Positions 1-17,576 of a DNA stretch of 64,000 bases are shown here, piece after piece; position 1 is the first letter of the stretch; each line of letters begins with the position of its first letter. Location: the sequence record MW822008.1. One strand, 5' to 3'. This stretch comes from Escherichia phage BF17. Both the position numbers and the translations under genes were made by a program. The notes under the pieces were generated by a model, which did no database searches, was not told the DNA's origin, and saw only the letters and a list, made by a program, of their open reading frames with translations.

Positions 1-364
1 AGTAGGCAGAGGAAGTCTGCCGTACTTTTTAGTTTCCAAGCTCCTTTTCCATTTTTCAAATTACATCAAATGTAATCAAAAGTAATCACGCAATGATTAG
101 TACTGAATTATTACTTTCACCTTAATTTCAATTACCCTTTTACCCGTCGGGGTAAAATTCAATTACCCCTTGAGGCTCCAGAAAAAAGTTGGTTAGTACT
201 CCATCCTAAATCTCGATCCTAAAAATTTTGGAGTACCTATGAAATAAAAGTTGGATCTTCGAAAGTTGAAATTTACGTTGGGACGTTTATGATTTGTGGG
301 ATATAATGATGTTTGTAGACGGGTAGTTCTCAAGAATATCAGTACTGAATAATGAAAGAAAGTT

Positions 365-393
365 ATTGACATTATGATTCAGTACTGTATAAT
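365..393 (+). promoter_or_regulatory. sigma70-like promoter in leader region (TTGACA-17-TATAAT)
   Basis: TTGACA 365-370, TATAAT 388-393, AGTACTG immediately upstream of -10. Confidence 0.5.
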
Positions 394-584
394 GTTCTAC
401 ATAGCTTCAAGGGTGATGAGTTGCTGCGAACAATTCATTTACTCTACCTCCTGTCGTGAGACAGTACAGAAAAGATAGTTCCTCCTGTGGTGGTACATCT
501 TTTTGAACCTCATATGAAAATCGTAATAACAGTACTGATATTAACAGAATGGTGTCAGTACTGATTTTAATCTAAAGCATTATG

Positions 585-604
585 CCACCAGCACAAGCTG
601 GTGG
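585..604. other. Inverted Chi pair CCACCAGC-acaa-GCTGGTGG
   Basis: CCACCAGC 585-592 and GCTGGTGG 597-604 read directly. Confidence 0.6.
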
Positions 605-729
605 ATTCCCTCTAACAGTATTCAGTACTACATGATAGTCTTCATCCTCCTAGGGTAACATAGTGAGGGCTATGATGGCAGTACTGAATACTCCCTTTCA
701 AAAGATAGATCTATGGTATAGTACTGACG

Positions 730-920
730 GATTTTGGGCGTAGTTACCCTGGATGGATTTTGGACGTAGATATGTCTAGCCCTCCAGAAGTCTGGAAGTA
801 AAGATGGCTATCCATCTAGACGGCTAAACGGCTAGATTTCTGGATGGCTAGATGGCTAGACGTTTGGACGGCTAAACGGCTAGATGGTTACACGTCTGGA
901 AGTATAGACGGCTAAATCAA
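730..920. repeat. Iteron-like short direct repeats (GGCTA[GA]A[TC]GG x8; GTCTGGAAGTA x2; GGATTTTGGRCGTAG x2)
   Basis: direct repeats visible at 731-770 and 790-915; candidate origin or packaging region. Confidence 0.65.
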
Positions 921-1085
921 AATTTTATTTTGTTTTTCCAATAGTTCCCCTACCGCGTGGGGATAGTTTCCCCGCAGTATCTGGAGTTAGATTTTTCTGA
1001 ATCTGGAATCATTATCTTATAAACTGGGGGCAATGTCAACGACCTGGACGGATATTTTTAAAAATTTTTTCAGTACTGAATTTTG

Positions 1086-1330
1086 GGCGTAACTATGCAC
1101 CCGGTGGGCTTGAGTCTTTCTCGACTTGATGGAACTATTATACAGTACTGAAAAAATAAAGCAATACCCTGGAAGCAAAAAAGTTTTAATTAATTTGCTT
1201 GCTATCCTGGGCCGGACTATGGTACTATATTTCAGTACTGAGAAAGTGCGTTTACCTGCTAGGGTGCGGGAGTGTATCCTTTTTTTATATCTTGAATTTT
1301 GGGCGTAATTTCGCACCCTCTGGGGTTTCC
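1086..1330. promoter_or_regulatory. Promoter-like sites with conserved downstream CCCACCGGGTGCATA-type elements in both orientations
   Basis: minus-strand TATAAT-like with element at about 1093-1108; plus-strand AGGGTGCGGGAGTGTATCC 1261-1280 then T-run; minus element about 1300-1320. Confidence 0.45.
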
Positions 1331-1673
1331 GCTTTCTCGCGTCTATGTAGTAATTATACGCTTTTTCAGGATCAAGTCAATACCTAAAAACAAAATAATT
1401 GAAAATAATTTAACGCGTTTAAACGGCCCGTAAAGCCCTGGAATGATTGGAATGGTGCAAATGTATAGCTTATGTGTATTAATGCGTTAGAATGCGTCTG
1501 AGGCCGTTTTACGGGGTATGGGGATGATTTGGTGGATTGATTCAGTACTGAATAATAGTACTACTATATAGAAAGATAGTTCCCCTGGATGGTTGCAGTA
1601 CTGAATGATAGTACTGAATAATAGTTCCCCTATATAGAAAGAAAACTATTTTAAAAGTATTTGTAGAAAGTAC

Positions 1674-1701
1674 TTGCAAACTAAGTTTAACGGCGTATAA
1701 T
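1674..1701 (+). promoter_or_regulatory. sigma70 promoter (TTGCAA-16-TATAAT) with 5' stem-loop
   Basis: TTGCAA 1674-1679, TATAAT 1696-1701; hairpin AGCGGGAAcactTTCCCGCT about 1714-1733. Confidence 0.7.
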
Positions 1702-1756
1702 GTTTTACATCGAGAGCGGGAACACTTCCCGCTACATATTACGAGAGATTAAAACG

Positions 1757-5135: not shown

Positions 5136-5163
5136 TTGCAATTAGTTTTCAGTACTGTATAAT
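5136..5163 (+). promoter_or_regulatory. sigma70 promoter with 5' stem-loop
   Basis: TTGCAA 5136-5141, TATAAT 5158-5163, hairpin GGGAGAAatggTTCTCCC. Confidence 0.7.
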
Positions 5164-5213
5164 GGTTTACATCAAAGGGAGAAATGGTTCTCCCTGGTAA
5201 TGAGGAAAATAAA

Positions 5214-5435
5214 ATGGCTAATATCACTACTCTTTCCCAACTGGAAGCACTGGTTAAATCTATGCGGGAACATGCCGACAAAATCGGCGTACAAGATCCA
5301 GCCGTTTGCTTCTGCGACGAATTGAATGATGATACCCTGGTAATAGCAGAAGTCCAGGACGTTTCTAACTATTCATCGCGTTACACTGGCGGCGTAGCAA
5401 ATAAAGGTGACTTCTGTTTATACCTTACAAAATAA
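5214..5435 (+). CDS. hypothetical protein (73 aa)
   Basis: ATG 5214, RBS GAGG 5202-5205. Confidence 0.75.
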   Translation: MANITTLSQLEALVKSMREHADKIGVQDPAVCFCDELNDDTLVIAEVQDVSNYSSRYTGGVANKGDFCLYLTK

Positions 5436-5438
5436 CAA

Positions 5439-5471
5439 CGCGGGGAGATAATAACTCCCCGTTACTTTTTC
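5439..5471 (+). terminator. Rho-independent terminator
   Basis: hairpin CGGGGAGataataaCTCCCCG followed by T-run. Confidence 0.7.
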
Positions 5472-5502
5472 AGTACTGAATCATTTAATAGACGGATCTA
5501 TG

Positions 5503-5573
5503 CACCCGGTGGGTTAGTGACTGTTTCGTCTTGATGTAGTAATTATGCCAGTACTGGATGCACTTGTCAACAA
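5503..5573 (-). promoter_or_regulatory. Minus-strand promoter (TTGACA-17-CATAAT) plus conserved ACCCACCGGGTGCATAG element
   Basis: -35 at 5568-5573, -10 at 5545-5550, element about 5503-5518; no minus-strand ORF. Confidence 0.5.
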
Positions 5574-5603
5574 CTATTTTTCAAATACTTTTTATTAAAA
5601 TAC

Positions 5604-5631
5604 TTGCAATTAGTTTTTAAACGCGTATAAT
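5604..5631 (+). promoter_or_regulatory. sigma70 promoter with 5' stem-loop
   Basis: TTGCAA 5604-5609, TATAAT 5626-5631. Confidence 0.7.
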
Positions 5632-5678
5632 GTTTTGCATAGGGGGAGCGGTTCCCCTGGTAACTAAGGAATAATAAA

Positions 5679-5915
5679 ATGCTTGAACAAATCAAATCAA
5701 CGTCTTCGAATGTAACGGGAACGGTAGCACACTTTACTAGTGATGAATCGCGGGGCGTTCCCTATTGTGCTGTACATGTAAACACTGAGGGTAACTACTG
5801 GTTTACGGTTTACGGATCATATTCATTTGGACGGCCAGGGCATCAAAAAATTCTGGATAAAGTACAACCAACGGGTAAAAATATCACTGCTGAAATGTTT
5901 TATAAAAAATCATAA
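5679..5915 (+). CDS. hypothetical protein (78 aa)
   Basis: ORF track; RBS AAGGA. Confidence 0.75.
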   Translation: MLEQIKSTSSNVTGTVAHFTSDESRGVPYCAVHVNTEGNYWFTVYGSYSFGRPGHQKILDKVQPTGKNITAEMFYKKS

Positions 5916-5920
5916 AGTAC

Positions 5921-5948
5921 TTGATAATAGTTTTTAGTACTGTATAAT
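5921..5948 (+). promoter_or_regulatory. sigma70 promoter with 5' stem-loop
   Basis: TTGATA 5921-5926, TATAAT 5943-5948, hairpin GGGGGAGCGGTTCCCCC. Confidence 0.65.
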
Positions 5949-5999
5949 ATTTTACATCGCAAGGGGGAGCGGTTCCCCCTGGTAACTAAGGATAATCAA

Positions 6000-6299
6000 A
6001 TGAAAATTGCAATCATCGCCCTGGCTTTATCTGTTTCCTCTTTCGCTGTTAATGCGTCATTAGATGTAAGTAGTGAAAAATTCATTCAGTGCACTGTTGC
6101 AATGACCGATGAAAGTACTGGCGAGATTGTTTTAAAGGATTTAGAGATCCAGCCGGAAGCATTTAAAAACGGGCCGTTCCATGAAGAAGACGAAAAAGGT
6201 AGCACGACAATTTATTACGATGCAAGTACTAAACGCGGTTCGGTCACTGTTATGGATACTGAGAAAGTAACTCATACTGGCGTTATTAATTGCCGTTGA
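6000..6299 (+). CDS. secreted/periplasmic hypothetical protein (99 aa) with N-terminal signal peptide
   Basis: MKIAIIALALSVSSFAVNA-S: hydrophobic core plus AxA-like cleavage site. Confidence 0.75.
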   Translation: MKIAIIALALSVSSFAVNASLDVSSEKFIQCTVAMTDESTGEIVLKDLEIQPEAFKNGPFHEEDEKGSTTIYYDASTKRGSVTVMDTEKVTHTGVINCR

Positions 6300-6320
6300 T
6301 ATATACTACGGGGTAACATC

Positions 6321-6551
6321 ATGACTAAGCGAATTGTTTTACTTAACGAAAGCAGTACTACACAACTACTTAACGCCGTGCATTATGATATTGAAACGAG
6401 CGTTAATCTTATCAGTACTGTAGTACTGTTGGACACTGGAAAGGTCGCCAATGATAAAGCGATTGCAGGTATACTAACGGATCTTGAGCCTGGTAGCAGT
6501 GCATCAATAACGTTAAATGGTAAAGTGTTTAACATTTTACTTACTGATTAA
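6321..6551 (+). CDS. hypothetical protein (76 aa)
   Basis: ORF track; RBS GGGG; same operon as 6000 gene. Confidence 0.65.
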   Translation: MTKRIVLLNESSTTQLLNAVHYDIETSVNLISTVVLLDTGKVANDKAIAGILTDLEPGSSASITLNGKVFNILLTD

Positions 6552-6555
6552 GTAC

Positions 6556-6586
6556 ATAGCCCACCTGGTGGGCTTTTTTGTTTTTG
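6556..6586 (+). terminator. Rho-independent terminator
   Basis: hairpin AGCCCACCtGGTGGGCT then TTTTTTG. Confidence 0.7.
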
Positions 6587-6633
6587 TAGTATCGTAGTAC
6601 TGAGATACTTTGAAAATAGTTTTAAAAAAGTAG

Positions 6634-6661
6634 TTGACATTACCGCAGAAAAGCGTAGAAT
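6634..6661 (+). promoter_or_regulatory. sigma70-like promoter (TTGACA-16-TAGAAT) with long diverged leader
   Basis: TTGACA 6634-6639, TAGAAT 6656-6661; leader 6668-6770 related to the 3722/14031 leaders. Confidence 0.6.
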
Positions 6662-6784
6662 GTATTACATCAAGACGGGGAGCACTAAGTAGACCGCCAG
6701 TAAGTCGAACGAAAAACTGGACACGTCGAGAAAACTTTGATACACTAATAAACGTAAACTAAACTTTAATTGAGGATTTATAAA

Positions 6785-7267
6785 ATGGCTAATGTAAAAT
6801 CATTCATCAAAGCACTGGTAGCAAATGAAACTAACGTCGCGGCTGAGATCCTGGCTGAACTGGATAACGATACCATGAAAGCGGTACGCAATAATTTTAA
6901 CATCGCGTACAGTACTGCGAAAGAACTACAAGCAAATAAAGCGGCAGAAATTGAAGCGGCAAAGGCGGCCCGTGAAGCAGAACTACAAGCAACAATCGAA
7001 AGTATTCAGGCGGCAGTAGTTGGATTGGATCTGGAAGTAGTTACAGAGATGGCACAAAAAGCCCTGGCGGTTAAGTATGGGGAAGACAAGCCAGAAGTAA
7101 AAGCCAAAAAATGGATTCAGGAACGCGTAGCGGTAGTACTGGACAACGGGGAAGAATATCTGATTCCGGTGCGTGGTAACTGCATTGCGGTAGTACTGGA
7201 CGCGATTAACTCCAGTGGTATGACTCGCGAGGAATGGATCGAAGCTCATCGCAAAGTTGAAGCATAA
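6785..7267 (+). CDS. hypothetical protein (160 aa), Ala/Glu-rich helical N-terminal part
   Basis: ATG 6785 with RBS GAGG 6772-6775. Confidence 0.75.
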   Translation: MANVKSFIKALVANETNVAAEILAELDNDTMKAVRNNFNIAYSTAKELQANKAAEIEAAKAAREAELQATIESIQAAVVGLDLEVVTEMAQKALAVKYGEDKPEVKAKKWIQERVAVVLDNGEEYLIPVRGNCIAVVLDAINSSGMTREEWIEAHRKVEA

Positions 7268-7286
7268 CAATTAAAGTACTGAATCA

Positions 7287-7318
7287 CTAGCCCACTTATA
7301 CAGTGGGCTTTTTTGTGT
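7287..7318 (+). terminator. Rho-independent terminator
   Basis: hairpin AGCCCACTtatacAGTGGGCT then TTTTTTG. Confidence 0.75.
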
Positions 7319-7324
7319 TTATCG

Positions 7325-7440
7325 TTTACCAGGCCACCAGCACCGCCTAGAAACGATTCTAACGCATTAAACTGATTATCTGATGCATCACCCTAGCTGG
7401 TGGCGTTAAGGTCGTTAGAATGCGATTGAGTGCGTTTAAA
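7325..7440. repeat. Large imperfect palindrome with Chi octamers on both arms and TTAGAATGCG motifs
   Basis: CCACCAGC 7334-7341 and GCTGGTGG 7396-7403; ATTCTAACGCATT / CGTTAGAATGCG inside. Confidence 0.5.
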
Positions 7441-7468
7441 GTATTTTACAAAAAGTAATAAAAAGTAC

Positions 7469-7496
7469 TTGCACGATTAAGAGATTAGCGTATAAT
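7469..7496 (+). promoter_or_regulatory. sigma70 promoter with 5' stem-loop
   Basis: TTGCAC 7469-7474, TATAAT 7491-7496, hairpin GGGGGAAacggTTCTCC. Confidence 0.7.
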
Positions 7497-7551
7497 GTTT
7501 TACATCGAGAGGGGGAAACGGTTCTCCTTCCAAATCAAAGGAATCAAAACA

Positions 7552-7779
7552 ATGGCTATTATCATTACTCGCGTATCTGGTACTACTGGCAACGAACAAG
7601 TAGTTGCAGTCATTACCAACAAGGAAGGTGCGGAATTGCAAAATGCAATGAATACCTGGGCCGTTAATGAGTTCGGTCAGTGGGCAAGTGTAGCATACAT
7701 TGAAACCTATCAAGTGCCGTCGATTAGTTTAACTGATTTGGGCGTTGAGCGTATCCTTTGCCTTGATGAATTAAATTAA
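7552..7779 (+). CDS. hypothetical protein (75 aa)
   Basis: ATG 7552, RBS AGGA 7538-7541. Confidence 0.75.
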   Translation: MAIIITRVSGTTGNEQVVAVITNKEGAELQNAMNTWAVNEFGQWASVAYIETYQVPSISLTDLGVERILCLDELN

Positions 7780-7787
7780 AAAAGTAC

Positions 7788-7815
7788 TTGCAAAGTAAAT
7801 CGAATAAAGTATAAT
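7788..7815 (+). promoter_or_regulatory. sigma70 promoter with 5' stem-loop
   Basis: TTGCAA 7788-7793, TATAAT 7810-7815, hairpin GGGGAGAAaatgGTTCTCCCC. Confidence 0.7.
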
Positions 7816-7865
7816 ACATTACATCAAGGGGAGAAAATGGTTCTCCCCACTACAAGGAAACTAAA

Positions 7866-8009
7866 ATGAAAACTTGTCAATGTGGTCAGAAATCTATTAC
7901 GGGTTTAAAGCGGGGCGTTGCTCTTTGCCAGTACCATTATAATTTACAAGTATGGGGTAAAGAATGGGCCGACCAGGTGGAAGCAGCAAAGAAAGCAAAA
8001 AGTAAGTAA
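7866..8009 (+). CDS. small Cys-containing protein (47 aa; CQCG...CQYHY), below ORF-track cutoff
   Basis: translated by hand: MKTCQCGQKSITGLKRGVALCQYHYNLQVWGKEWADQVEAAKKAKSK; RBS AAGGAA; promoter upstream. Confidence 0.6.
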   Translation: MKTCQCGQKSITGLKRGVALCQYHYNLQVWGKEWADQVEAAKKAKSK

Positions 8010-8022
8010 AAATATTATCACA

Positions 8023-8057
8023 GTACTATTGACATAGTTTGATAGTACTGGCATAAT
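8023..8057 (+). promoter_or_regulatory. Palindromic promoter cassette AGTACTAT-TGACATAGTTTG-ATAGTACT (copy 1)
   Basis: TTGACA 8029-8034, CATAAT 8052-8057; about 60 nt (8007-8070) exactly repeated at 8299-8362. Confidence 0.7.
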
Positions 8058-8088
8058 AGATTTTATCAAGACGACTAAGGAAAACAAA

Positions 8089-8301
8089 ATGGCTATCATT
8101 ACAAAAATCAAAGTAAACAAATCACTGGTTAAACTTGAACAAGTGAAAGCAGGTTATAAAGTATCGTGGTGCGGTATGTATCGGATGTTCGCAGATATTG
8201 ATGAAGCGATCAATTATTACAGCGACACGGTTAAAAACTTTGTTCGTGCTGATGTGGTTATGGCAGTGGCAGCACATAAAGCAGCGAAAGAAAGTAAGTA
8301 A
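8089..8301 (+). CDS. hypothetical protein (70 aa); paralog of 11203..11382
   Basis: ORF track; RBS AAGGAA; MAII(T/A)K start shared with 11203 gene. Confidence 0.75.
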   Translation: MAIITKIKVNKSLVKLEQVKAGYKVSWCGMYRMFADIDEAINYYSDTVKNFVRADVVMAVAAHKAAKESK

Positions 8302-8314
8302 AAATATTATCACA

Positions 8315-8349
8315 GTACTATTGACATAGTTTGATAGTACTGGCATAAT
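8315..8349 (+). promoter_or_regulatory. Palindromic promoter cassette (copy 2, exact repeat of copy 1)
   Basis: TTGACA 8321-8326, CATAAT 8344-8349. Confidence 0.7.
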
Positions 8350-8390
8350 AGATTTTATCAAGACAACATATTAATTTAAGGAATACAAAA

Positions 8391-8714
8391 ATGGCTAAAA
8401 CTATCATTAACACCGTTTCCCTGGCTGCAATCCGTGCAATCAATGTTGACGGTAAACGTTGGACTGATTCATATGGCAATACTTATCATTCTTGTCATGT
8501 AAGCGTTGAACTGGATAACGGTTTGAATGATCTGGCGGTTGAATCATTTACTTATGGCTATGAAGATGCATATCAACAAACGGCGTTAGATCTCTTAAAG
8601 GAATCAGTAGACGGGCTTAATACTGATGAAACCTCCCTTACTCGTTTGTGCAATGATCTTAATATCCCGTTGCATTGTACTGTACAGAATGTTAAACGCA
8701 AAAAAGATCTTTAA
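8391..8714 (+). CDS. hypothetical protein (107 aa); paralog of 14809..15132
   Basis: shares RWTDS(Y/H)GNTYHSC(H/Y)VS and C-terminal RKKD(L/M) with 14809 gene. Confidence 0.75.
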   Translation: MAKTIINTVSLAAIRAINVDGKRWTDSYGNTYHSCHVSVELDNGLNDLAVESFTYGYEDAYQQTALDLLKESVDGLNTDETSLTRLCNDLNIPLHCTVQNVKRKKDL

Positions 8715-8794
8715 TTAGCTTTACTTTATGCAGATACTTTGATATAGTGTCTGCATAGGGGAAAGAAATTAAATTAACTTAAGAGGATCGTATA

Positions 8795-9064
8795 ATGAAA
8801 AATATCAGTACTTTAATCGATGCAGGTACACATGTTCGGCGGTCTATGGTTGCAACCAGTACTACAAAACAAGTAGCGAGCGGTTATCTTGTATTTGTGC
8901 ACGATGGTAAACTCCTGGAACGTTCAATCAATTTTGATGTTAAAAACAATTGCCGTTTTATTATCTTTAAGCGTGAACAATATAAAATTGATTTACCAGC
9001 GAAGCCCATAAGCGGGGCGTACAACGTGCAATCATTGTTTGAGCGTCAACCTTACACCTATTAA
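8795..9064 (+). CDS. hypothetical protein (89 aa)
   Basis: ORF track; strong RBS AAGAGGA; upstream inverted repeat ATGCAGATACT...AGTGTCTGCAT. Confidence 0.7.
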   Translation: MKNISTLIDAGTHVRRSMVATSTTKQVASGYLVFVHDGKLLERSINFDVKNNCRFIIFKREQYKIDLPAKPISGAYNVQSLFERQPYTY

Positions 9065-9115
9065 TCAAAACATCGTTAGCGGTCGTTTAAGGCCGCTTAT
9101 ATTGGGGATTATACC

Positions 9116-9388
9116 ATGAACGTTAATCAAGTACTGAATGAGATCGAAAGCATCATTAAACCGATGAAGCGTACTGATGCTATGTTAACACCGGAAGAAA
9201 GCCGCCTATATGAGCGTTACAGCGTCGAACAAGTCCAGGCAATGGCTATGGCTACGCCAGCCGTTAAACCGCCTGAGAATGCGTTACAGGACGTTACAGG
9301 GGATTATATCATTAATCCAGTACTAGGGAAGATGCCGCCAATCACCGAAGAACAAAAAGACTATTTGAGTCAGTACTTAAAAGGTTAA
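9116..9388 (+). CDS. hypothetical protein (90 aa)
   Basis: ORF track; RBS GGGG. Confidence 0.65.
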   Translation: MNVNQVLNEIESIIKPMKRTDAMLTPEESRLYERYSVEQVQAMAMATPAVKPPENALQDVTGDYIINPVLGKMPPITEEQKDYLSQYLKG

Positions 9389-9393
9389 TTAAT

Positions 9394-9603
9394 ATGCTTA
9401 CTGTACAGGATAAGATCGACATCTTAAAGGTTAATATGTATGTGATTGATGCCGTACCTGGTAAAGTATTTGCATACGATGATTCTAATCGCAGTCCTTT
9501 CTATTGTAGTCATGTAGTTGGATACGTGCCGTTGGCGTATGTTATCGAAAGAGTGGTTGATGCAGCATACAATCATTTTTTAGAAAATAATACTTGCAAT
9601 TAG
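9394..9603 (+). CDS. hypothetical protein (69 aa)
   Basis: ORF track; 5 nt after previous stop. Confidence 0.6.
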   Translation: MLTVQDKIDILKVNMYVIDAVPGKVFAYDDSNRSPFYCSHVVGYVPLAYVIERVVDAAYNHFLENNTCN

Positions 9604-9621
9604 TTTTTAAACGCGTATAAT
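9594..9621 (+). promoter_or_regulatory. sigma70 promoter with 5' stem-loop
   Basis: TTGCAA 9594-9599, TATAAT 9616-9621, hairpin GGGGAGAAatgaTTCTCCCC. Confidence 0.7.
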
Positions 9622-9672
9622 GTTTTACATGAAGGGGAGAAATGATTCTCCCCACTAATTAAGGAATATGAA

Positions 9673-9819
9673 ATGAAAGCATCAAAAAAGAGTAATACCA
9701 AGAAAGCATGTTCACCTTTCGCTGGGGTATTCCCTTTACGTTTCGTTGATGAAGTGGTTTCCTACCCGCTGGGCCTTACTCCTGAGATGGTAGAAAGTTT
9801 GCGTAAATCTAAAAAATAA
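9673..9819 (+). CDS. small basic protein (48 aa), below ORF-track cutoff
   Basis: hand-translated MKASKKSNTKKACSPFAGVFPLRFVDEVVSYPLGLTPEMVESLRKSKK; RBS AAGGAA. Confidence 0.55.
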   Translation: MKASKKSNTKKACSPFAGVFPLRFVDEVVSYPLGLTPEMVESLRKSKK

Positions 9820-9823
9820 TACT

Positions 9824-9850
9824 TGCAATTAGTTTTCAGTACTGTATAAT
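9824..9850 (+). promoter_or_regulatory. sigma70 promoter with 5' stem-loop
   Basis: TTGCAA 9824-9829, TATAAT 9845-9850. Confidence 0.7.
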
Positions 9851-9900
9851 AGTTTACATGAAGGGGAGAAATGATTCTCCCCAATAACAGGAGAAACAAA

Positions 9901-10053
9901 ATGAAACAATACAACGCTCGGTTTGATGTTACTATCGGCAACGGCAAAGGTCAATTCTCTTTCAGTACTCGCCGCAGTTATACAGAAAACTTCCTGCGAA
10001 ATTGTGCACTGACCGCCGCACAAATTAAACATTACTTCCAGGCTAAAAAATGA
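9901..10053 (+). CDS. hypothetical protein (50 aa)
   Basis: ATG 9901 with RBS CAGGAG; track start 9871 lies in leader. Confidence 0.6.
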   Translation: MKQYNARFDVTIGNGKGQFSFSTRRSYTENFLRNCALTAAQIKHYFQAKK

Positions 10054-10139
10054 AATCATTAGCTTATTACAGTTCGGCGGTGATCGGTGCATTGATCGCG
10101 GCATTGTTAGTAACCTATCTATTCTTTATGGTGATTTAA
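10050..10139 (+). CDS. tiny hydrophobic single-TM peptide (29 aa)
   Basis: ATGA overlap with upstream stop; MKSLAYYSSAVIGALIAALLVTYLFFMVI. Confidence 0.35.
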   Translation: MKSLAYYSSAVIGALIAALLVTYLFFMVI

Positions 10140-10259
10140 ATGAATCCTAACGGTTTAATTTACAGTACTACTAAAACGAAAGCAGATAAAGCGAAAGTAA
10201 AGGAGTACATTAAGCAAGGCATGACGCGAAAGGCGGCAGTACTGAAAGCTAAAAAATAA
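10140..10259 (+). CDS. small basic protein (39 aa)
   Basis: ATG adjacent to previous TAA; MNPNGLIYSTTKTKADKAKVKEYIKQGMTRKAAVLKAKK. Confidence 0.35.
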   Translation: MNPNGLIYSTTKTKADKAKVKEYIKQGMTRKAAVLKAKK

Positions 10260-10267
10260 ATGAAAAA

Positions 10268-10350
10268 AGTGGTTGACTTCGGTCAGCCATTTTGCTATTA
10301 TATATTCATTGAGAGATAGCTCACTAGCCCACCGGGTGCATAAGTGTATC
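10268..10350 (+). promoter_or_regulatory. Composite module: terminator-like hairpin overlapping promoter (TTGACT-17-TATTAT) plus conserved element GCCCACCGGGTGCATAAGTGTATC
   Basis: hairpin 10271-10288 with T-run; TTGACT 10273-10278; TATTAT 10296-10301; element 10327-10350. Confidence 0.55.
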
Positions 10351-10394
10351 TATTATATAAGTATTGAGTACTGAGAACTATTTTTAAAAAGTAC

Positions 10395-10422
10395 TTGCAA
10401 ACTATCTCAATTGGCGTATAAT
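10395..10422 (+). promoter_or_regulatory. sigma70 promoter with 5' stem-loop
   Basis: TTGCAA 10395-10400, TATAAT 10417-10422. Confidence 0.7.
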
Positions 10423-10473
10423 GTTTTACATCGAGAGGGGGAACGGTTTCCCCTGGTAATAAGGAAACGAATC

Positions 10474-10815
10474 ATGACTATCTCAATTGCTCAATCTAAC
10501 TTTGAAAATGAAATCATCGCCCAGGCACTGCGTTTAAATGATGGTCGGGCCGAAATTAATTACGGTTTCAATTCAGGCGGTTGTGAAAACTATCAGTACT
10601 TTGTAACTGCTGATGGCGGTGTCCTGGGCATCAATACCGTTATTGTAAACATTCAGAAAATTAATTTCAATGATCCAGACGATAGCCAGTTTTACATTGT
10701 AGGCGTAGACGTGAACTATGAGGATGACTCACTAACTGATGATCACACTGGCGAGAAGTTAGAAAGTGCATACGGTGAAGATGATTATCAGTCCGGTCCA
10801 GAAGATTTTGAATAA
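10474..10815 (+). CDS. hypothetical protein (113 aa), acidic C-terminus
   Basis: ATG 10474 with RBS AAGGAA. Confidence 0.75.
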   Translation: MTISIAQSNFENEIIAQALRLNDGRAEINYGFNSGGCENYQYFVTADGGVLGINTVIVNIQKINFNDPDDSQFYIVGVDVNYEDDSLTDDHTGEKLESAYGEDDYQSGPEDFE

Positions 10816-10828
10816 TATTAAAAAATAG

Positions 10829-10857
10829 TTTGACAATAGATTATAGTACTGTATAAT
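10829..10857 (+). promoter_or_regulatory. sigma70 promoter (TTGACA-17-TATAAT) with 5' stem-loop
   Basis: TTGACA 10829-10834, TATAAT 10852-10857. Confidence 0.7.
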
Positions 10858-10906
10858 AAGTTACATCAAGGGGAGAATAGTTCTCCCCACTAACAGAGAA
10901 AACAAA

Positions 10907-11119
10907 ATGGCTAATATCTGCACTGTACTGAAAAATGCAAAACAAGTTTTATTTTCTGACCACGATTATTTTAATAAAGATATTACAGGCGTTCGGAATA
11001 TCAAAGATGTAAAAAGTGTTATGGGTATCTATTGCAATATGAAACGTGTTGGAACGTTCGGCGACAAAGTACTATACCAGGCAGGGGATTACAATTTTAC
11101 ACTGACTATCATTAACTAA
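10907..11119 (+). CDS. hypothetical protein (70 aa)
   Basis: ORF track; RBS GAGAAAA. Confidence 0.7.
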   Translation: MANICTVLKNAKQVLFSDHDYFNKDITGVRNIKDVKSVMGIYCNMKRVGTFGDKVLYQAGDYNFTLTIIN

Positions 11120-11132
11120 AAATATTATCACA

Positions 11133-11167
11133 GTACTATTGACATAGTTTGATAGTACTGACATAAT
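11133..11167 (+). promoter_or_regulatory. Palindromic promoter cassette (copy 3)
   Basis: TTGACA 11139-11144, CATAAT 11162-11167, flanked by AGTACTAT / ATAGTACT. Confidence 0.7.
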
Positions 11168-11202
11168 AACTTTTATCAACTACACTACTAAGGAATTAAA
11201 AA

Positions 11203-11382
11203 ATGGCTATCATCGCAAAAACTGAAATCGTTGGTCTGGATTCTATCATCATGACGTTTGAAGATCAAAAAGGTATGTATGTAGTTTCATATGGTGATTA
11301 TGTTCGGGAGTATGAAACGGTAGACGAAGCCTTTGAAAGTTATATTCGCCAGGTGAATAAAGCATACGACGACTACCGCTAA
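11203..11382 (+). CDS. hypothetical protein (59 aa); paralog of 8089..8301
   Basis: hand-translated; RBS AAGGAA. Confidence 0.6.
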   Translation: MAIIAKTEIVGLDSIIMTFEDQKGMYVVSYGDYVREYETVDEAFESYIRQVNKAYDDYR

Positions 11383-11403
11383 AATATATTACCAGTACTA
11401 TTA

Positions 11404-11437
11404 AAGTTATTGACATAGTTTGATAGTACTGTATAAT
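11404..11437 (+). promoter_or_regulatory. Palindromic promoter cassette (copy 4)
   Basis: TTGACA 11410-11415, TATAAT 11432-11437. Confidence 0.7.
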
Positions 11438-11481
11438 AAGTTTTATAAACAGTAGTTAACTTAACCTAAGAGAGAAATAAA

Positions 11482-11625
11482 ATGATCGCACTGGATTCAT
11501 TCATCGACGCAGTACTGGCAAAAACTGGCGAGGATCTGACCGCAGAACAATACGCGATGATCGAGCAATGTCAGCAAAACGGTAAATCGGTGAAAGATAC
11601 TGTTAAGATTATCCGCAAGATGTAA
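11482..11625 (+). CDS. small protein (47 aa), below ORF-track cutoff
   Basis: hand-translated MIALDSFIDAVLAKTGEDLTAEQYAMIEQCQQNGKSVKDTVKIIRKM; RBS AGAGAAA. Confidence 0.55.
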   Translation: MIALDSFIDAVLAKTGEDLTAEQYAMIEQCQQNGKSVKDTVKIIRKM

Positions 11626-11631
11626 GATTAT

Positions 11632-11665
11632 AGCCCACTGGTTAACGCTGGTGGGCTTTAATCCT
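11632..11665 (+). terminator. Terminator-like hairpin containing a Chi octamer
   Basis: AGCCCAC...GTGGGCT stem; GCTGGTGG 11647-11654; weak T-run. Confidence 0.45.
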
Positions 11666-11730
11666 TTACCCTATACAATGTCAGTACTAAACCGTTTATC
11701 TCATTAGAATGCGTTACAGGACGTTTGACA

Positions 11731-11928
11731 ATGATTAGCATGAAATCAGTACAAAAACAAATAGAAACATTATCAAAAATTAAACGTAAACAGTACTCGT
11801 TAGAATATACAATCAATGGTAACTATCATCTAATGAAAGAGAATAATTTTATCGTCATTGATGAATCATTGCAAGTTATTAGTATAGTACTGAAAGCATT
11901 AATTAATGATAGAAAAAAATTAAAATAA
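11731..11928 (+). CDS. hypothetical protein (65 aa), AT-rich codon usage
   Basis: ATG 11731 (track start is TTG 11725); weak RBS; no promoter seen. Confidence 0.4.
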   Translation: MISMKSVQKQIETLSKIKRKQYSLEYTINGNYHLMKENNFIVIDESLQVISIVLKALINDRKKLK

Positions 11929-11932
11929 TCTA

Positions 11933-12013
11933 TTGACAATATCCTCCAGTACTGGCATAATACTTACATCAAGACGAGAACGTCACTAACCCATAGGGTG
12001 CACAAATGTAACT
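11933..12013 (+). promoter_or_regulatory. Promoter (TTGACA-17-CATAAT) plus conserved element ACCCATAGGGTGCACAAATGTAAC
   Basis: TTGACA 11933-11938, CATAAT 11956-11961, element 11988-12013. Confidence 0.55.
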
Positions 12014-12020
12014 GTATAAT

Positions 12021-12057
12021 ATTGATCAAAAAATGATCTGATCAATACTTGATCAAT
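12021..12057. promoter_or_regulatory. GATC cluster: 4 GATC sites in 31 bp, three as TGATCAA
   Basis: GATC at 12024, 12035, 12040, 12051 within the leader upstream of the TraR-like gene. Confidence 0.6.
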
Positions 12058-12259
12058 TTGCGTAAAGTAGTATAATTCTATGCAGTTGGTTAGACGAAAG
12101 GTTATGATTAGTAGTGCAAGTGTATAAAAATTTTCATGGTGTATCGTTCCGCACATATGGCAATGAATATGTGGTATCATGTGGATTGGAAAAAGTAAGA
12201 ACAAGTAATATTATTGTCGCATTACAGTACTATAGTATTTTTATAATGAGGTTAAAATA

Positions 12260-12517
12260 ATGGCTGTAGGATTCGCGAAAGATGGGGCCGAACAAGACGA
12301 GATTAACGCAGTGATTCAGGCCGCCGTTAACCACGCTAGAAAGCAAATTAACGCACAAATAGAATCACTGATACATTGCCTCGACTGCGGCGATATAATC
12401 CCTGAGAAACGACGCCAGGCCGTTAAGGGATGTAAGTACTGCATAACTTGCCAGGAGGATCATGATAGTACTTTTAAACGTCCCCCGCGTAATTGTTGGC
12501 ATAGATCTATGAGATAA
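12260..12517 (+). CDS. TraR/DksA-family C4 zinc-finger protein (85 aa)
   Basis: CLDCGDIIPEKRRQAVKGCKYCITCQ = C-x2-C-x13-C-x2-C-x2-C arrangement with IPE..RR typical of TraR; RBS GAGG. Confidence 0.75.
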   Translation: MAVGFAKDGAEQDEINAVIQAAVNHARKQINAQIESLIHCLDCGDIIPEKRRQAVKGCKYCITCQEDHDSTFKRPPRNCWHRSMR

Positions 12518-12523
12518 AAAGTA

Positions 12524-12552
12524 TTGACAGTACTATCCAGTAGTGTTATAGT
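12524..12552 (+). promoter_or_regulatory. sigma70 promoter (TTGACA-17-TATAGT) with 5' stem-loop
   Basis: TTGACA 12524-12529, TATAGT 12547-12552, hairpin AGGGGAAacatcTTCCCCT. Confidence 0.65.
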
Positions 12553-12598
12553 ACTTACATCAAGGGGAAACATCTTCCCCTACTAAGAGGAAATGAAA

Positions 12599-12787
12599 AT
12601 GGAAAACTTATCAAGTATTTTAGTACAAGATGATTTCGGTAATCCTGGAAGTGCTATCATTGTTCGGGGTAATAAAGCAACATTTGTTATTGCTGGTGGA
12701 CCTGTACAGCGTAGCATTAAAAACAATGCCGTTACTATTAATAATGTACGCTATCGCTTAGATAAAGAATTGATTCATAAACTGTAA
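12599..12787 (+). CDS. hypothetical protein (62 aa)
   Basis: ATG 12599 with RBS AGAGG (track start 12593 too close to RBS). Confidence 0.65.
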   Translation: MENLSSILVQDDFGNPGSAIIVRGNKATFVIAGGPVQRSIKNNAVTINNVRYRLDKELIHKL

Positions 12788-12814
12788 TATTAATTTAATA
12801 GAGGATAACAATAA

Positions 12815-13138
12815 ATGTACATTCATACTACTATCACAAAGGAAGTCCGTTGCCAGTTCGAAAGTATTCCGGGCGTATGTTTCATCACTGGTACGTTTTC
12901 CCCTGGTGATCGTGATAATCCAGTACTGTTACAATTACGCCATCCATCATGGGATAAAGCATTTGATCTACCGTTGAATGAATTCGCAACTACTGCTGAA
13001 AAGTACATTAAAAATATTCGCGAGAATGATCGACTATTCATTAATGCTTTCAGTGATTCCGCGTTAAGCGAGATCCACAGCGTATTGGTTGCAATCATGG
13101 AATCAATGGAGAAAACTAAATTCAAACAAGGTGAATAA
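12815..13138 (+). CDS. hypothetical protein (107 aa)
   Basis: ORF track; RBS AGAGGA. Confidence 0.7.
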   Translation: MYIHTTITKEVRCQFESIPGVCFITGTFSPGDRDNPVLLQLRHPSWDKAFDLPLNEFATTAEKYIKNIRENDRLFINAFSDSALSEIHSVLVAIMESMEKTKFKQGE

Positions 13139-13144
13139 AAACTA

Positions 13145-13172
13145 TTGACAAGATAATCTAGTACTGTATAAT
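13145..13172 (+). promoter_or_regulatory. sigma70 promoter (TTGACA-16-TATAAT) with 5' stem-loop
   Basis: TTGACA 13145-13150, TATAAT 13167-13172. Confidence 0.7.
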
Positions 13173-13221
13173 AAGTTACATGAAGGGGAGAAATGATTCT
13201 CCCCACTGAGAGGAAAGAAAA

Positions 13222-13434
13222 ATGCAAGGTCAACTAATCGTTCGTAAATGGTCTGATACTAACGCTAAACCGTGGGATGTACAATACATCGGACCGGATG
13301 GGGTATCACGTTATCAGCCTGGCGTAACGCATAGTACTGAGCAATATGCCGCCGCTCACCGCGAACGCCTGTTAGAATCCATGAAACAGGGATACGGTGA
13401 AAAATTCATTCAAGATCATTGGCTGAAAGATTAA
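13222..13434 (+). CDS. hypothetical protein (70 aa)
   Basis: ORF track; RBS GAGAGGAAA. Confidence 0.75.
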   Translation: MQGQLIVRKWSDTNAKPWDVQYIGPDGVSRYQPGVTHSTEQYAAAHRERLLESMKQGYGEKFIQDHWLKD

Positions 13435-13451
13435 TATAAGGAGTACAGCTT

Positions 13452-13544
13452 ATGCAAATGAATCCGATGATTATTGTGTTAGCTGTACTTATGATCATTC
13501 ATGCAATAGTAAAAGTATTAACGCAATCAGGAGTAATAAAATGA
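13452..13544 (+). CDS. tiny hydrophobic single-TM peptide (30 aa)
   Basis: RBS AAGGAG 13436-13441; MQMNPMIIVLAVLMIIHAIVKVLTQSGVIK. Confidence 0.4.
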   Translation: MQMNPMIIVLAVLMIIHAIVKVLTQSGVIK

Positions 13545-13714
13545 TTCAAGTAGAATTATCAGTACTGAAAGATCTGTTTTATCGGTTAGGTACTACTGGC
13601 GAGTATCCTAAAAGTGATACCGCAAAACTTTTTGTATCACTCGACTTATGGCAACGCGAACAATTAGTAATGTCCTGGCGTAAAGGTAAAGCAGATAGCG
13701 AGGTGAAAGCATGA
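13541..13714 (+). CDS. small protein (57 aa)
   Basis: ATGA overlap with upstream stop; RBS CAGGAG. Confidence 0.45.
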   Translation: MIQVELSVLKDLFYRLGTTGEYPKSDTAKLFVSLDLWQREQLVMSWRKGKADSEVKA

Positions 13715-13860
13715 AAGAATTCTTATTCGAAGTAGTGTTTCAAGGTGTCGGTAGTAACCAACTGATTCGCTCAAGTGGTTATAATGTTAACCAGGCATGG
13801 AATAACATTAAACAAATGTACCCGAACGCTATCACCTATCGCAACCCGAAAGAAGTTTAA
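13711..13860 (+). CDS. small protein (49 aa)
   Basis: ATGA overlap with upstream stop; RBS GAGG. Confidence 0.45.
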   Translation: MKEFLFEVVFQGVGSNQLIRSSGYNVNQAWNNIKQMYPNAITYRNPKEV

Positions 13861-13873
13861 AAATATTTGAAAA

Positions 13874-13952
13874 AGGGATTGACTCCGGTCAGTCCCTTTG
13901 CTATTATATACGCATAGAAACAAATCAGCCCACAGGGTGCATAAATGTATCT
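13874..13952 (+). promoter_or_regulatory. Composite module: bidirectional terminator-like hairpin overlapping promoter plus conserved element AGCCCACAGGGTGCATAAATGTATC
   Basis: hairpin GGGATTGACtccgGTCAGTCCC 13875-13896, TTGACT 13878-13883, element 13927-13952; Chi GCTGGTGG 13960-13967 just downstream. Confidence 0.55.
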
Positions 13953-13998
13953 ATTGTTTGCTGGTGGCTAGTACTGAAAACTATTTTTAAAAAAGTAC

Positions 13999-14026
13999 TT
14001 GCATTGTACTTAGAATCAAGTATAAT
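13999..14026 (+). promoter_or_regulatory. sigma70 promoter P1 (TTGCAT-16-TATAAT)
   Basis: TTGCAT 13999-14004, TATAAT 14021-14026. Confidence 0.65.
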
Positions 14027-14030
14027 GTTT

Positions 14031-14114
14031 TACATCAGGACGGGGAACGAAACAAGTAACCCCGTTAAGTAGTCCAGGAGTAAGACATAAGAAAACCTCC
14101 CCTGATAAAATAGT
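14031..14114 (+). ncRNA. Conserved structured leader / candidate small RNA (copy 2)
   Basis: about 85% identical to 3722-3806; stem CGGGG...CCCCG one base pair shorter on both arms. Confidence 0.4.
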
Positions 14115-14142
14115 TTGACAATAGAAAGTAAACGAGTATAAT
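14115..14142 (+). promoter_or_regulatory. sigma70 promoter P2 (TTGACA-16-TATAAT)
   Basis: TTGACA 14115-14120, TATAAT 14137-14142. Confidence 0.65.
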
Positions 14143-14175
14143 ACTTACATCAACCACTGATAAGGAAACATTAAA

Positions 14176-14451
14176 ATGCGGATTCTACTGACAGCTAACG
14201 AAATCGAACAAGTACTGACTACTAACCTGGAAGACTGGAAACGTGAAGCAGATATCCAGGCGGTTCAACTGCTTAACGATAAGTTAACGCCGGATGACTT
14301 AAGCAAGATTGTAGATCCTCAATTCTACGAAGATATCCACGACACCGCGTTAAGCGTCGAGGATGTACTAGATAAGCACTACATTGATATTGATTTGCAG
14401 GTTTACGGTCGTAAAAACTTTATCACTATTCACGACATTTATAATAATTAA
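14176..14451 (+). CDS. hypothetical acidic protein (91 aa)
   Basis: ORF track; RBS AAGGAAA. Confidence 0.75.
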   Translation: MRILLTANEIEQVLTTNLEDWKREADIQAVQLLNDKLTPDDLSKIVDPQFYEDIHDTALSVEDVLDKHYIDIDLQVYGRKNFITIHDIYNN

Positions 14452-14454
14452 GTA

Positions 14455-14720: not shown

Positions 14721-14723
14721 GTA

Positions 14724-17573: not shown

Positions 17574-17576
17574 GTA

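Follow-up and report, generated by a model that had tools for sequence, protein, structure and literature searches.

We analyzed a 64,000-nucleotide stretch of DNA from Escherichia phage BF17 (MW822008.1; hereafter the window), focusing on the leader of 1,756 bases that precedes gene 1. Based on comparison with related phages, this leader is probably the non-coding left tip of a direct terminal repeat of ca. 20.6 kb and represents a composite of cis-acting sites and not an origin of replication. Homology to experimentally mapped relatives places the predicted packaged DNA end at window base 1. The ca. 20-kb repeat of PBECO4-like phages has already been published while the content of its non-coding tip is the new part.

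Positions 1 to 1760 match 43 phage records in a megablast search, 34 of them over the full length at 90-98% identity, and all 43 are PBECO4/121Q-like jumbo coliphages of the genus Asteriusvirus. Window base 1 is also record base 1 in five separately deposited relatives (OQ718158, OQ708376, OR699282, PP777464 and PP886230) and, by homology, coincides with the mapped physical end of fEgEco12. In vB_Ec-M-J (phage J, OQ718158), positions 1-21525 carry the annotation 'Direct Terminal Repeats' (21,525 bp), and the right-end copy opens with the identical sequence at position 2550 of the right-hand segment, so that the repeat is found at both genome ends. Repeat lengths of 20,993 bp for fEgEco12 (PP777464; determined by PhageTerm, with agreeing restriction digests, PMC13070987), 20,668 bp for Sharanji and ca. 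20 kb for G17 (by coverage) have been reported. The final 40 repeat bases of both phage J and fEgEco12 align to window 20551-20590, which defines the inner boundary at 20590 and therefore the repeat as window 1-20590 (ca. 20.6 kb). In the one-copy assemblies of PBECO4, G17 and 121Q, gene-free DNA extends ca. 270 bp upstream of base 1, and the gene-free region of the concatemer thus comprises ca. 2.0 kb with the cut inside it. A preliminary description of the window had proposed a genome terminus, terminal-repeat boundary or packaging region at this place. Both the shared first base of the five relatives and the conserved cut sequence described below bear this out, and all features listed in that description were recovered within the leader.

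The left physical terminus (1-32, plus strand, cut just before base 1) consists of a hairpin at 1-26 with the stem GGCAGA/TCTGCC (5-21), followed by a T-run; its fold has a free energy of -6.9 kcal/mol (z = -4.3). The cut follows CACTA(A)^ (CAGTACTGATATGYCACTA(A)^, where ^ marks the cut) and precedes AAGTCGC located 12 nt inside the repeat (+13). This sequence is kept in Asteriusvirus, Alcyoneusvirus, Mimasvirus and Eneladusvirus, although the motif that the other genera carry as AAGTCGC at +13 takes the form AAGTCTGC (13-20) in Asteriusvirus. Individual cuts read AGTACTGATATGCCACTA^AGTCCGTTTATAAAGTCGC in Klebsiella phage RaK2 (upstream flank also written ...GATATGCCACTA), AGTACTGATATGTCACTAA^AGTAGGCAGAGGAAGTCTGC in E. 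coli phage J (upstream flank also written ...GATATGTCACTAA) and CCACTA^TATCTGTTCCTGAAGTCG in Cronobacter phage GAP32. The records of Muenster (PhageTerm), BF and XbC2 open precisely at the equivalent cut positions. Since the cut sequence is shared by the four genera while the flanks cannot be aligned between them, it represents a conserved recognition sequence.

The right repeat boundary (20560-20600, last base 20590) reads GGGTAACCT^TTAGCGACTTCG. GCGACTT, the reverse complement of AAGTCGC, lies 3 nt beyond it at 20594-20600 and is the sole copy on both strands of the window. The same arrangement was found in the 350-kb relative OR845138, where the repeat ends at 21275 and GCGACTT, one of ten copies in that genome, is located at 21278. 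The right junction is CGCTAA^AGG when read on the minus strand and the left one is CACTAA^AGT, so that both have CTAA^AG in common on opposite strands. This would fit the need of a T7-type scheme of staggered nicks and strand displacement: terminase would nick one strand at one CTAA^AG junction and the opposite strand at the other, and strand displacement would duplicate the repeat, as proposed for T7. Further, 10-bp tandem repeats containing GTAATCA (at 72-78 and 82-88) occupy 56-98 on the plus strand (Tandem Repeats Finder (TRF): 56-88, period 10), with copy numbers that differ between strains. GTAATCA occurs nine times in the window, a background of about one copy per 7 kb. Around the cut, three copies are found 100-150 bp upstream in the concatemer and two to three copies 72-98 bp downstream (in phage J, -150/-130/-108 and +72/+82/+92 when counted from the cut). 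These flanking GTAATCA repeats are candidate docking sites that would serve the small subunit of terminase.

The repeat is also distinguished by Chi sites. Chi (GCTGGTGG) occurs 11 times on both strands of the window against 0.42 expected occurrences, and ten of these copies, eight on the plus and two on the minus strand, lie inside 1-20590. The inverted pair noted earlier at 585-604 (CCACCAGC at 585-592, GCTGGTGG at 597-604) is exact and forms a conserved 8-bp hairpin (-9.9 kcal/mol as DNA, z = -5.1). Further repeat copies are located at 7396, 11647, 12692, 13960, 16308, 17715 and 19222 on the plus and at 7334 on the minus strand. Seven plus-strand and one minus-strand Chi are present in the Muenster repeat (5138-18934) with none in the next 6 kb; the window and Muenster repeats are not alignable and both are Chi-rich. 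In the whole genome of a relative, Chi sites have a density of 0.52/kb inside the repeat, as opposed to 0.05/kb outside it. The confinement of Chi to the repeat is a robust observation. The stems of the Chi hairpin are invariant in seven of eight Asteriusvirus leaders while the 4-nt loop is either ACAA or its reverse complement TTGT, which looks like loop inversion within a palindrome. The hairpin was also considered as an intrinsic terminator and rejected: it has no U-tract, is followed by ATTCCCTC and was negative in a consensus scan, though ARNOLD calls a terminator in G17.

Given the polarity of RecBCD, the minus-strand Chi at 585 is read by enzyme entering at the left end, and plus-strand Chi by enzyme entering the right-hand repeat copy at its right end. 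The 585-592 site faces the left end at a distance of 585 bp, ahead of any gene, and the eight plus-strand sites face right. RecBCD entering at the left end would be stopped by the 585 Chi before reaching any gene, and the eight plus-strand sites would do likewise for the repeat copy at the right end. Both ends would then enter RecA-mediated recombination between the repeats, resulting in circles or concatemers. The strand bias of Chi is only suggestive because base composition predicts a ratio of ca. 1.8:1.

The direct repeats at 730-920, previously described as iterons, are present as a strict 8-bp tandem array (TRF period 8, 12.4 copies), to which the twofold GTCTGGAAGTA repeat also belongs. 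Fourteen in-phase units occupy 802-913, with degenerate units extending back to ca. 776. Units 1 to 7 are AGATGGCT, ATCCATCT, AGACGGCT, AAACGGCT, AGATTTCT, GGATGGCT and AGATGGCT, and units 8 to 14 are AGACGTTT, GGACGGCT, AAACGGCT, AGATGGTT, ACACGTCT, GGAAGTAT and AGACGGCT. Their consensus in the window is AGACGGCT, the canonical met box recognized by the methionine repressor MetJ being AGACGTCT. Scoring was carried out with the half-metbox matrix and thresholds of Augustus and Spicer 2011 (PMC3228920, Table 3), where a site requires at least two adjacent 8-bp boxes, each reaching at least 1/4 of the consensus score, and a total of at least the consensus score. By this rule, 802-913 contains 14 consecutive boxes totaling 105.1 bits, compared with a site threshold of 12.58. 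Simulated arrays never exceeded three boxes (100 Markov simulations of 64 kb), and the repeat-tip array is the only one with more than two boxes in a complete 350-kb relative. The position frequencies of the units mirror the published MetJ matrix, and the units differ from one another yet hold phase and consensus. Copy number ranges from 8 to 14 among near-identical strains with strain-to-strain indels of 16 and 48 bp, so that the 8-bp phase is kept. Further, the host E. coli belongs to the Enterobacterales, one of five MetJ-bearing orders (PMC3228920). No promoter overlaps 802-913 and no met gene is adjacent, and we therefore refer to the element as a MetJ-type box array and not as a met-regulon operator. 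The TrpR operator, with CTAG at 8-bp spacing, was considered as well and set aside, its flanks fitting less well than those of MetJ.

While the repeats are real, their iteron nature was not supported: as contiguous 8-bp units matching the MetJ operator, they are best explained as a MetJ-type operator array to which MetJ would bind. MetJ and Fur are host co-repressors that polymerize on short tandem units, and natural met operators contain two to five boxes. The host repressor MetJ in complex with S-adenosylmethionine (SAM) would polymerize on the array. As hundreds of genomes accumulate, each contributing 28 boxes per virion genome, repressor titration would derepress methionine/SAM supply. 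In addition or instead, the coated array would form a SAM-dependent roadblock to a leftward transcript entering it from the promoter at 1011-1039 (minus strand, TTGACA-17-GATAAT, 11 of 12 consensus positions). This transcript is predicted to pass through a hairpin at 975-940 and then into the met-box array where a gene would start. Titration and roadblock are the consequences of MetJ binding that we consider most likely. In the library searched, no paper linking MetJ or met boxes with phage ends was found, and the MetJ-type operator array at phage ends is new to this literature.

Arrays of this type are found in diverse phages. Among the jumbo phages, BF, Erwinia phage pEa47, GAP32, CBB and XbC2 carry equivalent arrays ca. 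650-850 bp from the repeat start. T7-like phages contain nine boxes at 38-109 (PGT2) and six boxes 65-120 bp from the right end (Drulisvirus KPV811). The T5-like Vibrio phage Pontus has 15 boxes at 484-603, within an open reading frame (ORF)-free start of 1 kb, and Aeromonas phage AhSzq-1 has 28. The unit consensus of BF and AhSzw-1 is exactly AGACGTCT. No met-box array is present in T5 itself or in RaK2 and Muenster, both of which keep the conserved cut sequence, and the E. coli genome collection yielded no match to the array. Using a strict three-box pattern, arrays of up to 36 boxes were identified in 15 IMG/VR contigs. One of these (IMGVR_UViG_3300031658_004036, 7257-7544) consists of 36 near-identical AGATGTCT/AGATGTCC boxes near the end of the fetched locus, and another contig carries a five-box site with two perfect AGACGTCT boxes at 435-474, near the start of its fetched locus. 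In Pontus, positions 1-1000 additionally contain at least eight copies of ATTTGCACCT, whose reverse complement AGGTGCAAAT resembles GGGTGCATAAAT of the jumbo phages, and consensus DnaA boxes TTATCCACA are located at ca. 703-770, near the 15-box array.

Klebsiella phage Muenster has the cut site, leader layout and AGTACT motif in common with the window and has no met boxes. Where the window has the met-box array and the GAATTTTGGGCGTAA motif, Muenster carries sequences 3-4 mismatches from the 19-bp Fur box GATAATGATAATCATTATC, found at 787-905, 1079, 1306 and 2422. One Fur-box-like sequence is present in BF (at 1034) and none in the window leader. Both MetJ and Fur being tandem-polymerizing host co-repressors, we read this position as a putative docking platform for host repressors, where Fur would coat the Fur-like boxes of the Klebsiella relatives as MetJ does the met boxes. 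Taken further, phages of three unrelated families (Rak2-like myoviruses, Demerecviridae and Autographiviridae) with MetJ-bearing gamma-proteobacteria as hosts may use their genome ends to attract or sequester host repressors that sense metabolites, on arrays of 6-28 boxes (up to 36 in an uncharacterized viral contig) in non-coding terminal-repeat tips, with Fur boxes in their stead in Klebsiella jumbo phages, thereby reprogramming methionine/SAM (or iron) supply or gating early events according to host physiology. We regard this generalization as tentative and somewhat less probable than its negation.

Muenster, with the same cut site and no array, also indicates that the array is dispensable for cutting and packaging. 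This bears on the possibility that the 8-bp array is the pac signal proper, recognized by the terminase small subunit. Small terminases commonly bind short repeated sequences and, in jumbo, T5-like and T7-like phages alike, less than 1 kb separates the array from the cut. However, a small terminase common to these three families is not to be expected, yet all of them have the unit; RaK2 and Muenster lack the array entirely while keeping the cut sequence; near-identical strains differ in their number of boxes (8 to 14); and the GTAATCA repeats beside the cut are a better candidate. A packaging role of the array is thus very unlikely.

The Fur-like swap argues against initiator iterons as well, because homologous replication machinery would not tolerate such a replacement. 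As an origin, the region would use the 8-bp repeats as iterons of a phage initiator, and its orphan promoters would prime R-loops beside AT-rich tracts as in T4 oriF/oriG. T4-type phages indeed combine promoter-driven R-loop origins with end-driven recombination-dependent replication, ORF-less promoters followed by A/T-rich DNA are dense in the leader, and in one-copy assemblies the left boundary is the exact point at which the sign of GC skew switches, from negative to positive in an 11-kb view of PBECO4. To obtain genome-wide skew, the complete relative OR845138 (350 kb, unannotated) was assembled. Here, skew is positive on blocks of plus-strand ORFs and negative in the two blocks of minus-strand ORFs, one at 150-190 kb and the other covering the last 30 kb ahead of the terminus, without any replication-type V over the genome. 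The origin-like local pattern therefore dissolves genome-wide: skew follows the coding strand, and the negative stretch upstream of the terminus corresponds to 30 kb of mostly minus-strand genes. Further, the units are contiguous 8-mers and not iterons spaced by 17-22 bp, the neighboring genes are small unknowns, no DnaA boxes (TTWTNCACA) were detected in the leaders of the window, Muenster and BF, Fur-like boxes replace the array in a sister genus, and the small GGGTGC units described below occur ca. 11 times across the repeat and are not confined to the leader. The proposal of an iteron-type replication origin in the preliminary description, which had itself suggested analyzing GC skew, is therefore not supported and we consider an origin at this position improbable.

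Sequence conservation in the leader also recalls T5, whose left repeat contains untranslated repeat regions with DnaA boxes that are conserved more strongly than the neighboring ORFs (Davison, bioRxiv 10.1101/866236). By analogy, host proteins bound to the first-entering DNA could hold the genome until early proteins are made. In its architecture of small early genes, untranslated repeats, palindromes and boxes for host factors, the region is similar to the left repeat of T5, and in T5-like Pontus the 15-box array lies beside DnaA boxes. The T5 injection stop signal consists of paired DnaA boxes in large inverted repeats at the inner repeat end, an arrangement that was not found here: the leader has no DnaA boxes and is located at the left tip while the T5 region lies at the inner end. 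T5 itself is without a met-box array and no evidence points to two-step transfer in this clade. Among the readings weighed, we assign such an injection pause the lowest probability.

Several points weigh against interpreting the leader as a composite tip with a MetJ platform. CTAA^AG, the sequence common to both junctions, is only 6 nt long. The Chi bias, 15:3 when two genera are pooled, is ca. 2.8 times that expected from composition, so that an order of entry with the right end first is weakly supported. At box position 6, ca. 60% of the phage units have G rather than T. This position, which we take from the MetJ-operator crystal structure to be contacted directly by MetJ, raises the possibility of low affinity or of a different ribbon-helix-helix ligand. 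The array does not overlap a promoter, unlike natural met operators, and its position near the end may only mirror where phages keep non-coding DNA. With respect to binding, transcription and packaging of the region, the evidence is sequence evidence throughout. Finally, BLAST-matched phages with arrays have named hosts in MetJ-bearing orders (one tallied genus being without a name) with the exception of Xanthomonas phage XbC2. This Mimasvirus, reported on Xanthomonas vesicatoria and with a record starting at the BF base, keeps an intact, in-phase 14-box array at 648-775 even though Xanthomonas belongs to none of the five orders that bear MetJ. XbC2 may thus have an enterobacterial natural host; otherwise, the array would be independent of MetJ.

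The systematic G at position 6 and the intact array of the Xanthomonas isolate would be explained if the ligand were a phage-encoded ribbon-helix-helix or other protein and the likeness to met boxes were convergent (8-bp CTAG-phased units). Short tandem repeats are typical operators of ribbon-helix-helix proteins. On the other hand, no protein common to Autographiviridae, Demerecviridae and Rak2-like myoviruses is evident, the consensus of several lineages is exactly AGACGTCT, all other named hosts belong to MetJ-bearing orders, and the parallel Fur-like boxes in relatives point to host repressors. We therefore consider a phage-encoded ligand unlikely and favor MetJ.

The leader also contains signals that are distributed over the entire repeat and beyond. 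No hexamer is more frequent in the window than AGTACT (252 copies versus 21 expected), which is also found ca. 913 times in OR845138 and is equally enriched in Muenster, BF and GAP32. The longer palindrome CAGTACTG occurs 63 times in the window against 0.49 expected occurrences. Ten exact CAGTACTG and 17 AGTACT cores are located in 1-1756, in line with the ca. 15 palindromes noted before. The notion of a leader-specific cluster has to be dropped, however, since the density of AGTACT in the leader (9.7/kb) equals that in all intergenic DNA of the terminal repeat (10.4/kb). AGTACT is present in all three reading frames, with 158 coding copies compared with 48.7 +/- 5.7 in synonymous-codon shuffles, and is nearly absent from 20.6-36.5 kb. 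Relative to -10-like hexamers, it is concentrated at offsets of +7/8 (30 versus 5.5 expected) and at +27, abutting the -35 element (19 versus 2.8). The flanks favor C...G. An assignment to the SlmA-binding site (GTGAGTACTCAC) was rejected, since its flanks are C/G-reversed and GAGTACTC has a count of 0. CAGTACTG would bind a dimeric, probably phage-encoded protein throughout the clade, and would be dense in the leader only because this is the longest intergenic stretch. A full-text literature search for CAGTACTG returned primers only, and one for AGTACT together with jumbo gave no relevant match. At 36.8-46.1 kb, several CAGTACTG copies are part of a repeated coding context (...TCAGTACTGGATAATGACTGGGGAAGTGAAGAGTACTACTTCCAG...) and thus of a paralogous gene family, which inflates the motif count there.

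A second family of elements consists of ORF-less transcription units with a common layout: a sigma-70 promoter, a covarying 3-5-bp hairpin with a purine-rich (GA-rich) loop of 6-8 nt, CCC-N3-4-GGGTGC and, after ca. 6 nt, GTATC. Because MAFFT failed to align the short stems, the hairpin was tested alignment-free. A stem of at least 3 bp is found at the same place in 20 of 24 copies from four genera, built from 16 different stem sequences, while shuffles gave a mean of 6.4 and a maximum of 14. GGGTGC is located at 1262, 3531, 10334, 11996, 13935, 17208 and 19170 on the plus strand and at 5507, 3587, 1318 and 1102 on the minus strand. In the 350-kb relative, 10 of 12 strict CCC-N3-4-GGGTG[CG] matches fall within the repeat. 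The units are also found in Muenster, BF and GAP32, often as convergent overlapping pairs, and had no Rfam match in 1-2300. We predict them to be a repeat-restricted family of small early transcription units. Three lie in the leader. The first (1065-1164, minus strand) has its -35 at 1164-1159, its -10 at 1142-1137, the hairpin AGTC-GAGAAA-GACT and CCCACCGGGTGC. The second (1199-1287, plus strand) combines TTGCTA (1199-1204), an 18-nt spacer, TACTAT (1223-1228) and a GAGAAA loop with AGGGTGC at 1261-1267, followed by a weak hairpin and a T7 run (1261-1287). The third (1281-1380, minus strand) comprises TTGACT (1380-1375), a 16-nt spacer, TATAAT (1358-1353), the hairpin CGC-GAGAAA-GCG and CCCCAGAGGGTGC. 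The convergent pair formed by the second and third units is the leader block best conserved across genera, with 1137-1359 matching Muenster 1156-1383, RaK2 and K64-1.

The absence of plausible genes before 1757 was confirmed. The longest ORFs encode 99 aa (1017-1316, minus strand) and 59-62 aa, and as gene candidates the leader ORFs (34-99 aa) were discarded since frameshifts or stop codons interrupt them in close relatives and none of them matched a PHROG. Gene 1 (1757-2119), on the other hand, matches phrog_7352 at 1e-58. An Rfam 15 scan of 1-2300 gave no match at E <= 1, and no tRNA or tmRNA was found in the window. The leader could then simply be decayed intergenic DNA, made up of promoter cassettes that lost their genes and a neutral minisatellite, with the cut site as its sole function. 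It is indeed built from cassettes found in other intergenic regions of the repeat, its AGTACT density is that of other intergenic DNA, and array length differs between strains. However, four genera retain an ORF-free leader of 1.3-1.8 kb with its elements in a common order even though their sequences cannot otherwise be aligned, diverged array units remain in phase and on consensus, and the stems of the Chi hairpin do not vary although its loop flips. Decay as the full explanation consequently has a very small probability, and we retain the composite of cis-acting sites.

Additional elements of the leader are given from left to right. Two copies of the direct repeat AAWTTCAATTACCCYTT (124-171, plus strand) surround the hairpin TTTTACCC-GTCG-GGGTAAAA at 138-157 (-6.4 kcal/mol, z = -2.8), followed by the block GATCCTAAAAATTTTGGAGTACCT ... 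GATCTYCGAAAGT (199-265, plus strand), which is conserved across genera and has a within-genus identity of 0.97-0.99. Two rightward sigma-70-type promoters, TTGGGA-18-TATAAT (278-307) and TTGACA-16-TATAAT (366-393, 12 of 12 consensus positions), come next on the plus strand and are kept in relatives, and no ORF follows the promoters at 266-393. In four genera, a strong rightward promoter is located 270-390 bp from the terminus (Muenster 272-300, BF 269-297, and GAP32). Promoter-like sites in both orientations, as noted in the preliminary description, are present and three of them score 11-12 of 12, with several kept across genera; their number is no higher than expected, as ten were counted compared with 7.0 +/- 2.2 in shuffles. 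Two copies of GGATTTTGGRCGTAG (726-772, plus strand) occupy the place of the Fur-like boxes of Klebsiella/Serratia relatives, and the related GAATTTTGGGCGTAA is found at 1075-1095 and 1291-1311.

To the right of the array, a T-rich tract with alternative CCCC/GGGG hairpins (ATAGTTCCCCTACCGCGTGGGGATAGTTTCCCC) at 914-975 would form the 5' hairpin of the minus-strand transcript from the 1039 promoter. It is kept beside the array in BF, GAP32 and XbC2. The identity for 901-950 is 0.99, and the fold is weak (z = -1.8). BLAST matches to 807-958 were obtained in BF, GAP32 and in Erwinia and Yersinia phages. The inverted repeat CCCGTAAA/TTTACGGG around GCGTTAGAATGCG (1426-1516), previously placed at 1420-1520, has its 8-bp arms at 1428-1435 and 1508-1515, but carries no structural signal, its fold being not superior to those of shuffled sequences (z = +0.46). 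BF and GAP32 contain a related GCCGTGTAAAG...ATGCGTT segment. Units of the AGTACTGAATAAT type, where AGTACT lies directly upstream of -10-like hexamers, and ATAGTTCCCC motifs occupy 1540-1640 on the plus strand (period 13 at 1597-1625). The leader ends with the early cassette of gene 1 (1665-1756, plus strand), consisting of AAAGTAC-TTGCAA-16-TATAAT at 1674-1701, the hairpin AGCGGGAACACTTCCCGCT in the 5' untranslated region and a ribosome-binding site ahead of the ATG at 1757. This cassette recurs ahead of gene 2 (2108-2194).

Some observations concern the DNA on either side of the leader. Within the repeat, terminator hairpins of preceding genes (e.g. GGGATTGAC-TCCG-GTCAGTCCC with a T-run) contain TTGAC, the -35 of the next promoter; such overlays are found at ca. 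10270-10300, 13880-13910, 17150-17180 and 19110-19140. In OR845138, ca. 22 packed plus-strand ORFs of ca. 60 aa lie -5.1 to -0.3 kb from the terminus and have a GC skew of -0.14 to -0.22, while every other plus-strand block of this genome has positive skew. Seven paralogous minus-strand ORFs of ca. 380 aa are located upstream of this cluster. The cluster of ca. 60-aa ORFs before the right-hand repeat is also present in the upstream parts of the loci of two further relatives.

If MetJ does coat the 14-box array of each repeat copy, phages would have a protein-free route for tapping or sensing host methionine/SAM, and enigmatic short repeats beside T7-like and T5-like ends would be given a function. 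The Chi sites confined to the repeat suggest how a linear genome of 370 kb may survive RecBCD and be converted into replicative forms. AGTACT and the GGGTGC units would represent clade-wide signals marking the early, repeat-borne gene set. Further, the cut-site motif should make it possible to predict by sequence alone where unmapped relatives have their ends.

Several of these elements recall known systems. The cyanobacterial highly iterated palindrome HIP1 (GCGATCGC) resembles AGTACT/CAGTACTG, an 8-bp palindrome with roughly one copy per kb, both inside and outside coding DNA, that is maintained at synonymous codons; AGTACT differs in sequence, host and its strong positional link to promoters. 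In case of Chi, the phage sites are the exact E. coli octamer, over-represented, beside DNA ends and in both orientations at the first site. Unlike E. coli Chi, they lie in the terminal repeat of a virulent jumbo phage and partly in a hairpin, where their role would be the one proposed above. Like MetJ operators (PMC3228920), the array has 8-bp units in strict tandem with CT/AG junctions and matrix-matching frequencies, and far exceeds the score thresholds; it differs by having 14 boxes (other phages and viral contigs have as many as 28-36), a predominance of G at position 6 and no met promoter. The T5 left repeat is likewise a long repeat of small early genes on host RNA polymerase promoters and has kilobase-sized untranslated regions of repeats, palindromes and host-protein boxes. 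There, the boxes are DnaA boxes at the inner (right) repeat end while BF17 carries MetJ-type boxes, and no DnaA boxes, at the outer left tip. T7-like phages differ in the size of the repeat (0.16-0.25 kb versus 20.6 kb here) and, for T7 itself, in the repeat unit, CCTAAAG, which is distinct from the 8-bp unit. The left end of T7-like phages nevertheless shows the same plan as that of BF17, with a unique cut, short tandem repeats no more than a few hundred bp from the end and strong inward sigma-70 promoters; CTAA^AG on opposite strands would fit the nick model, and PGT2 and KPV811 carry the very 8-bp unit of the BF17 array.

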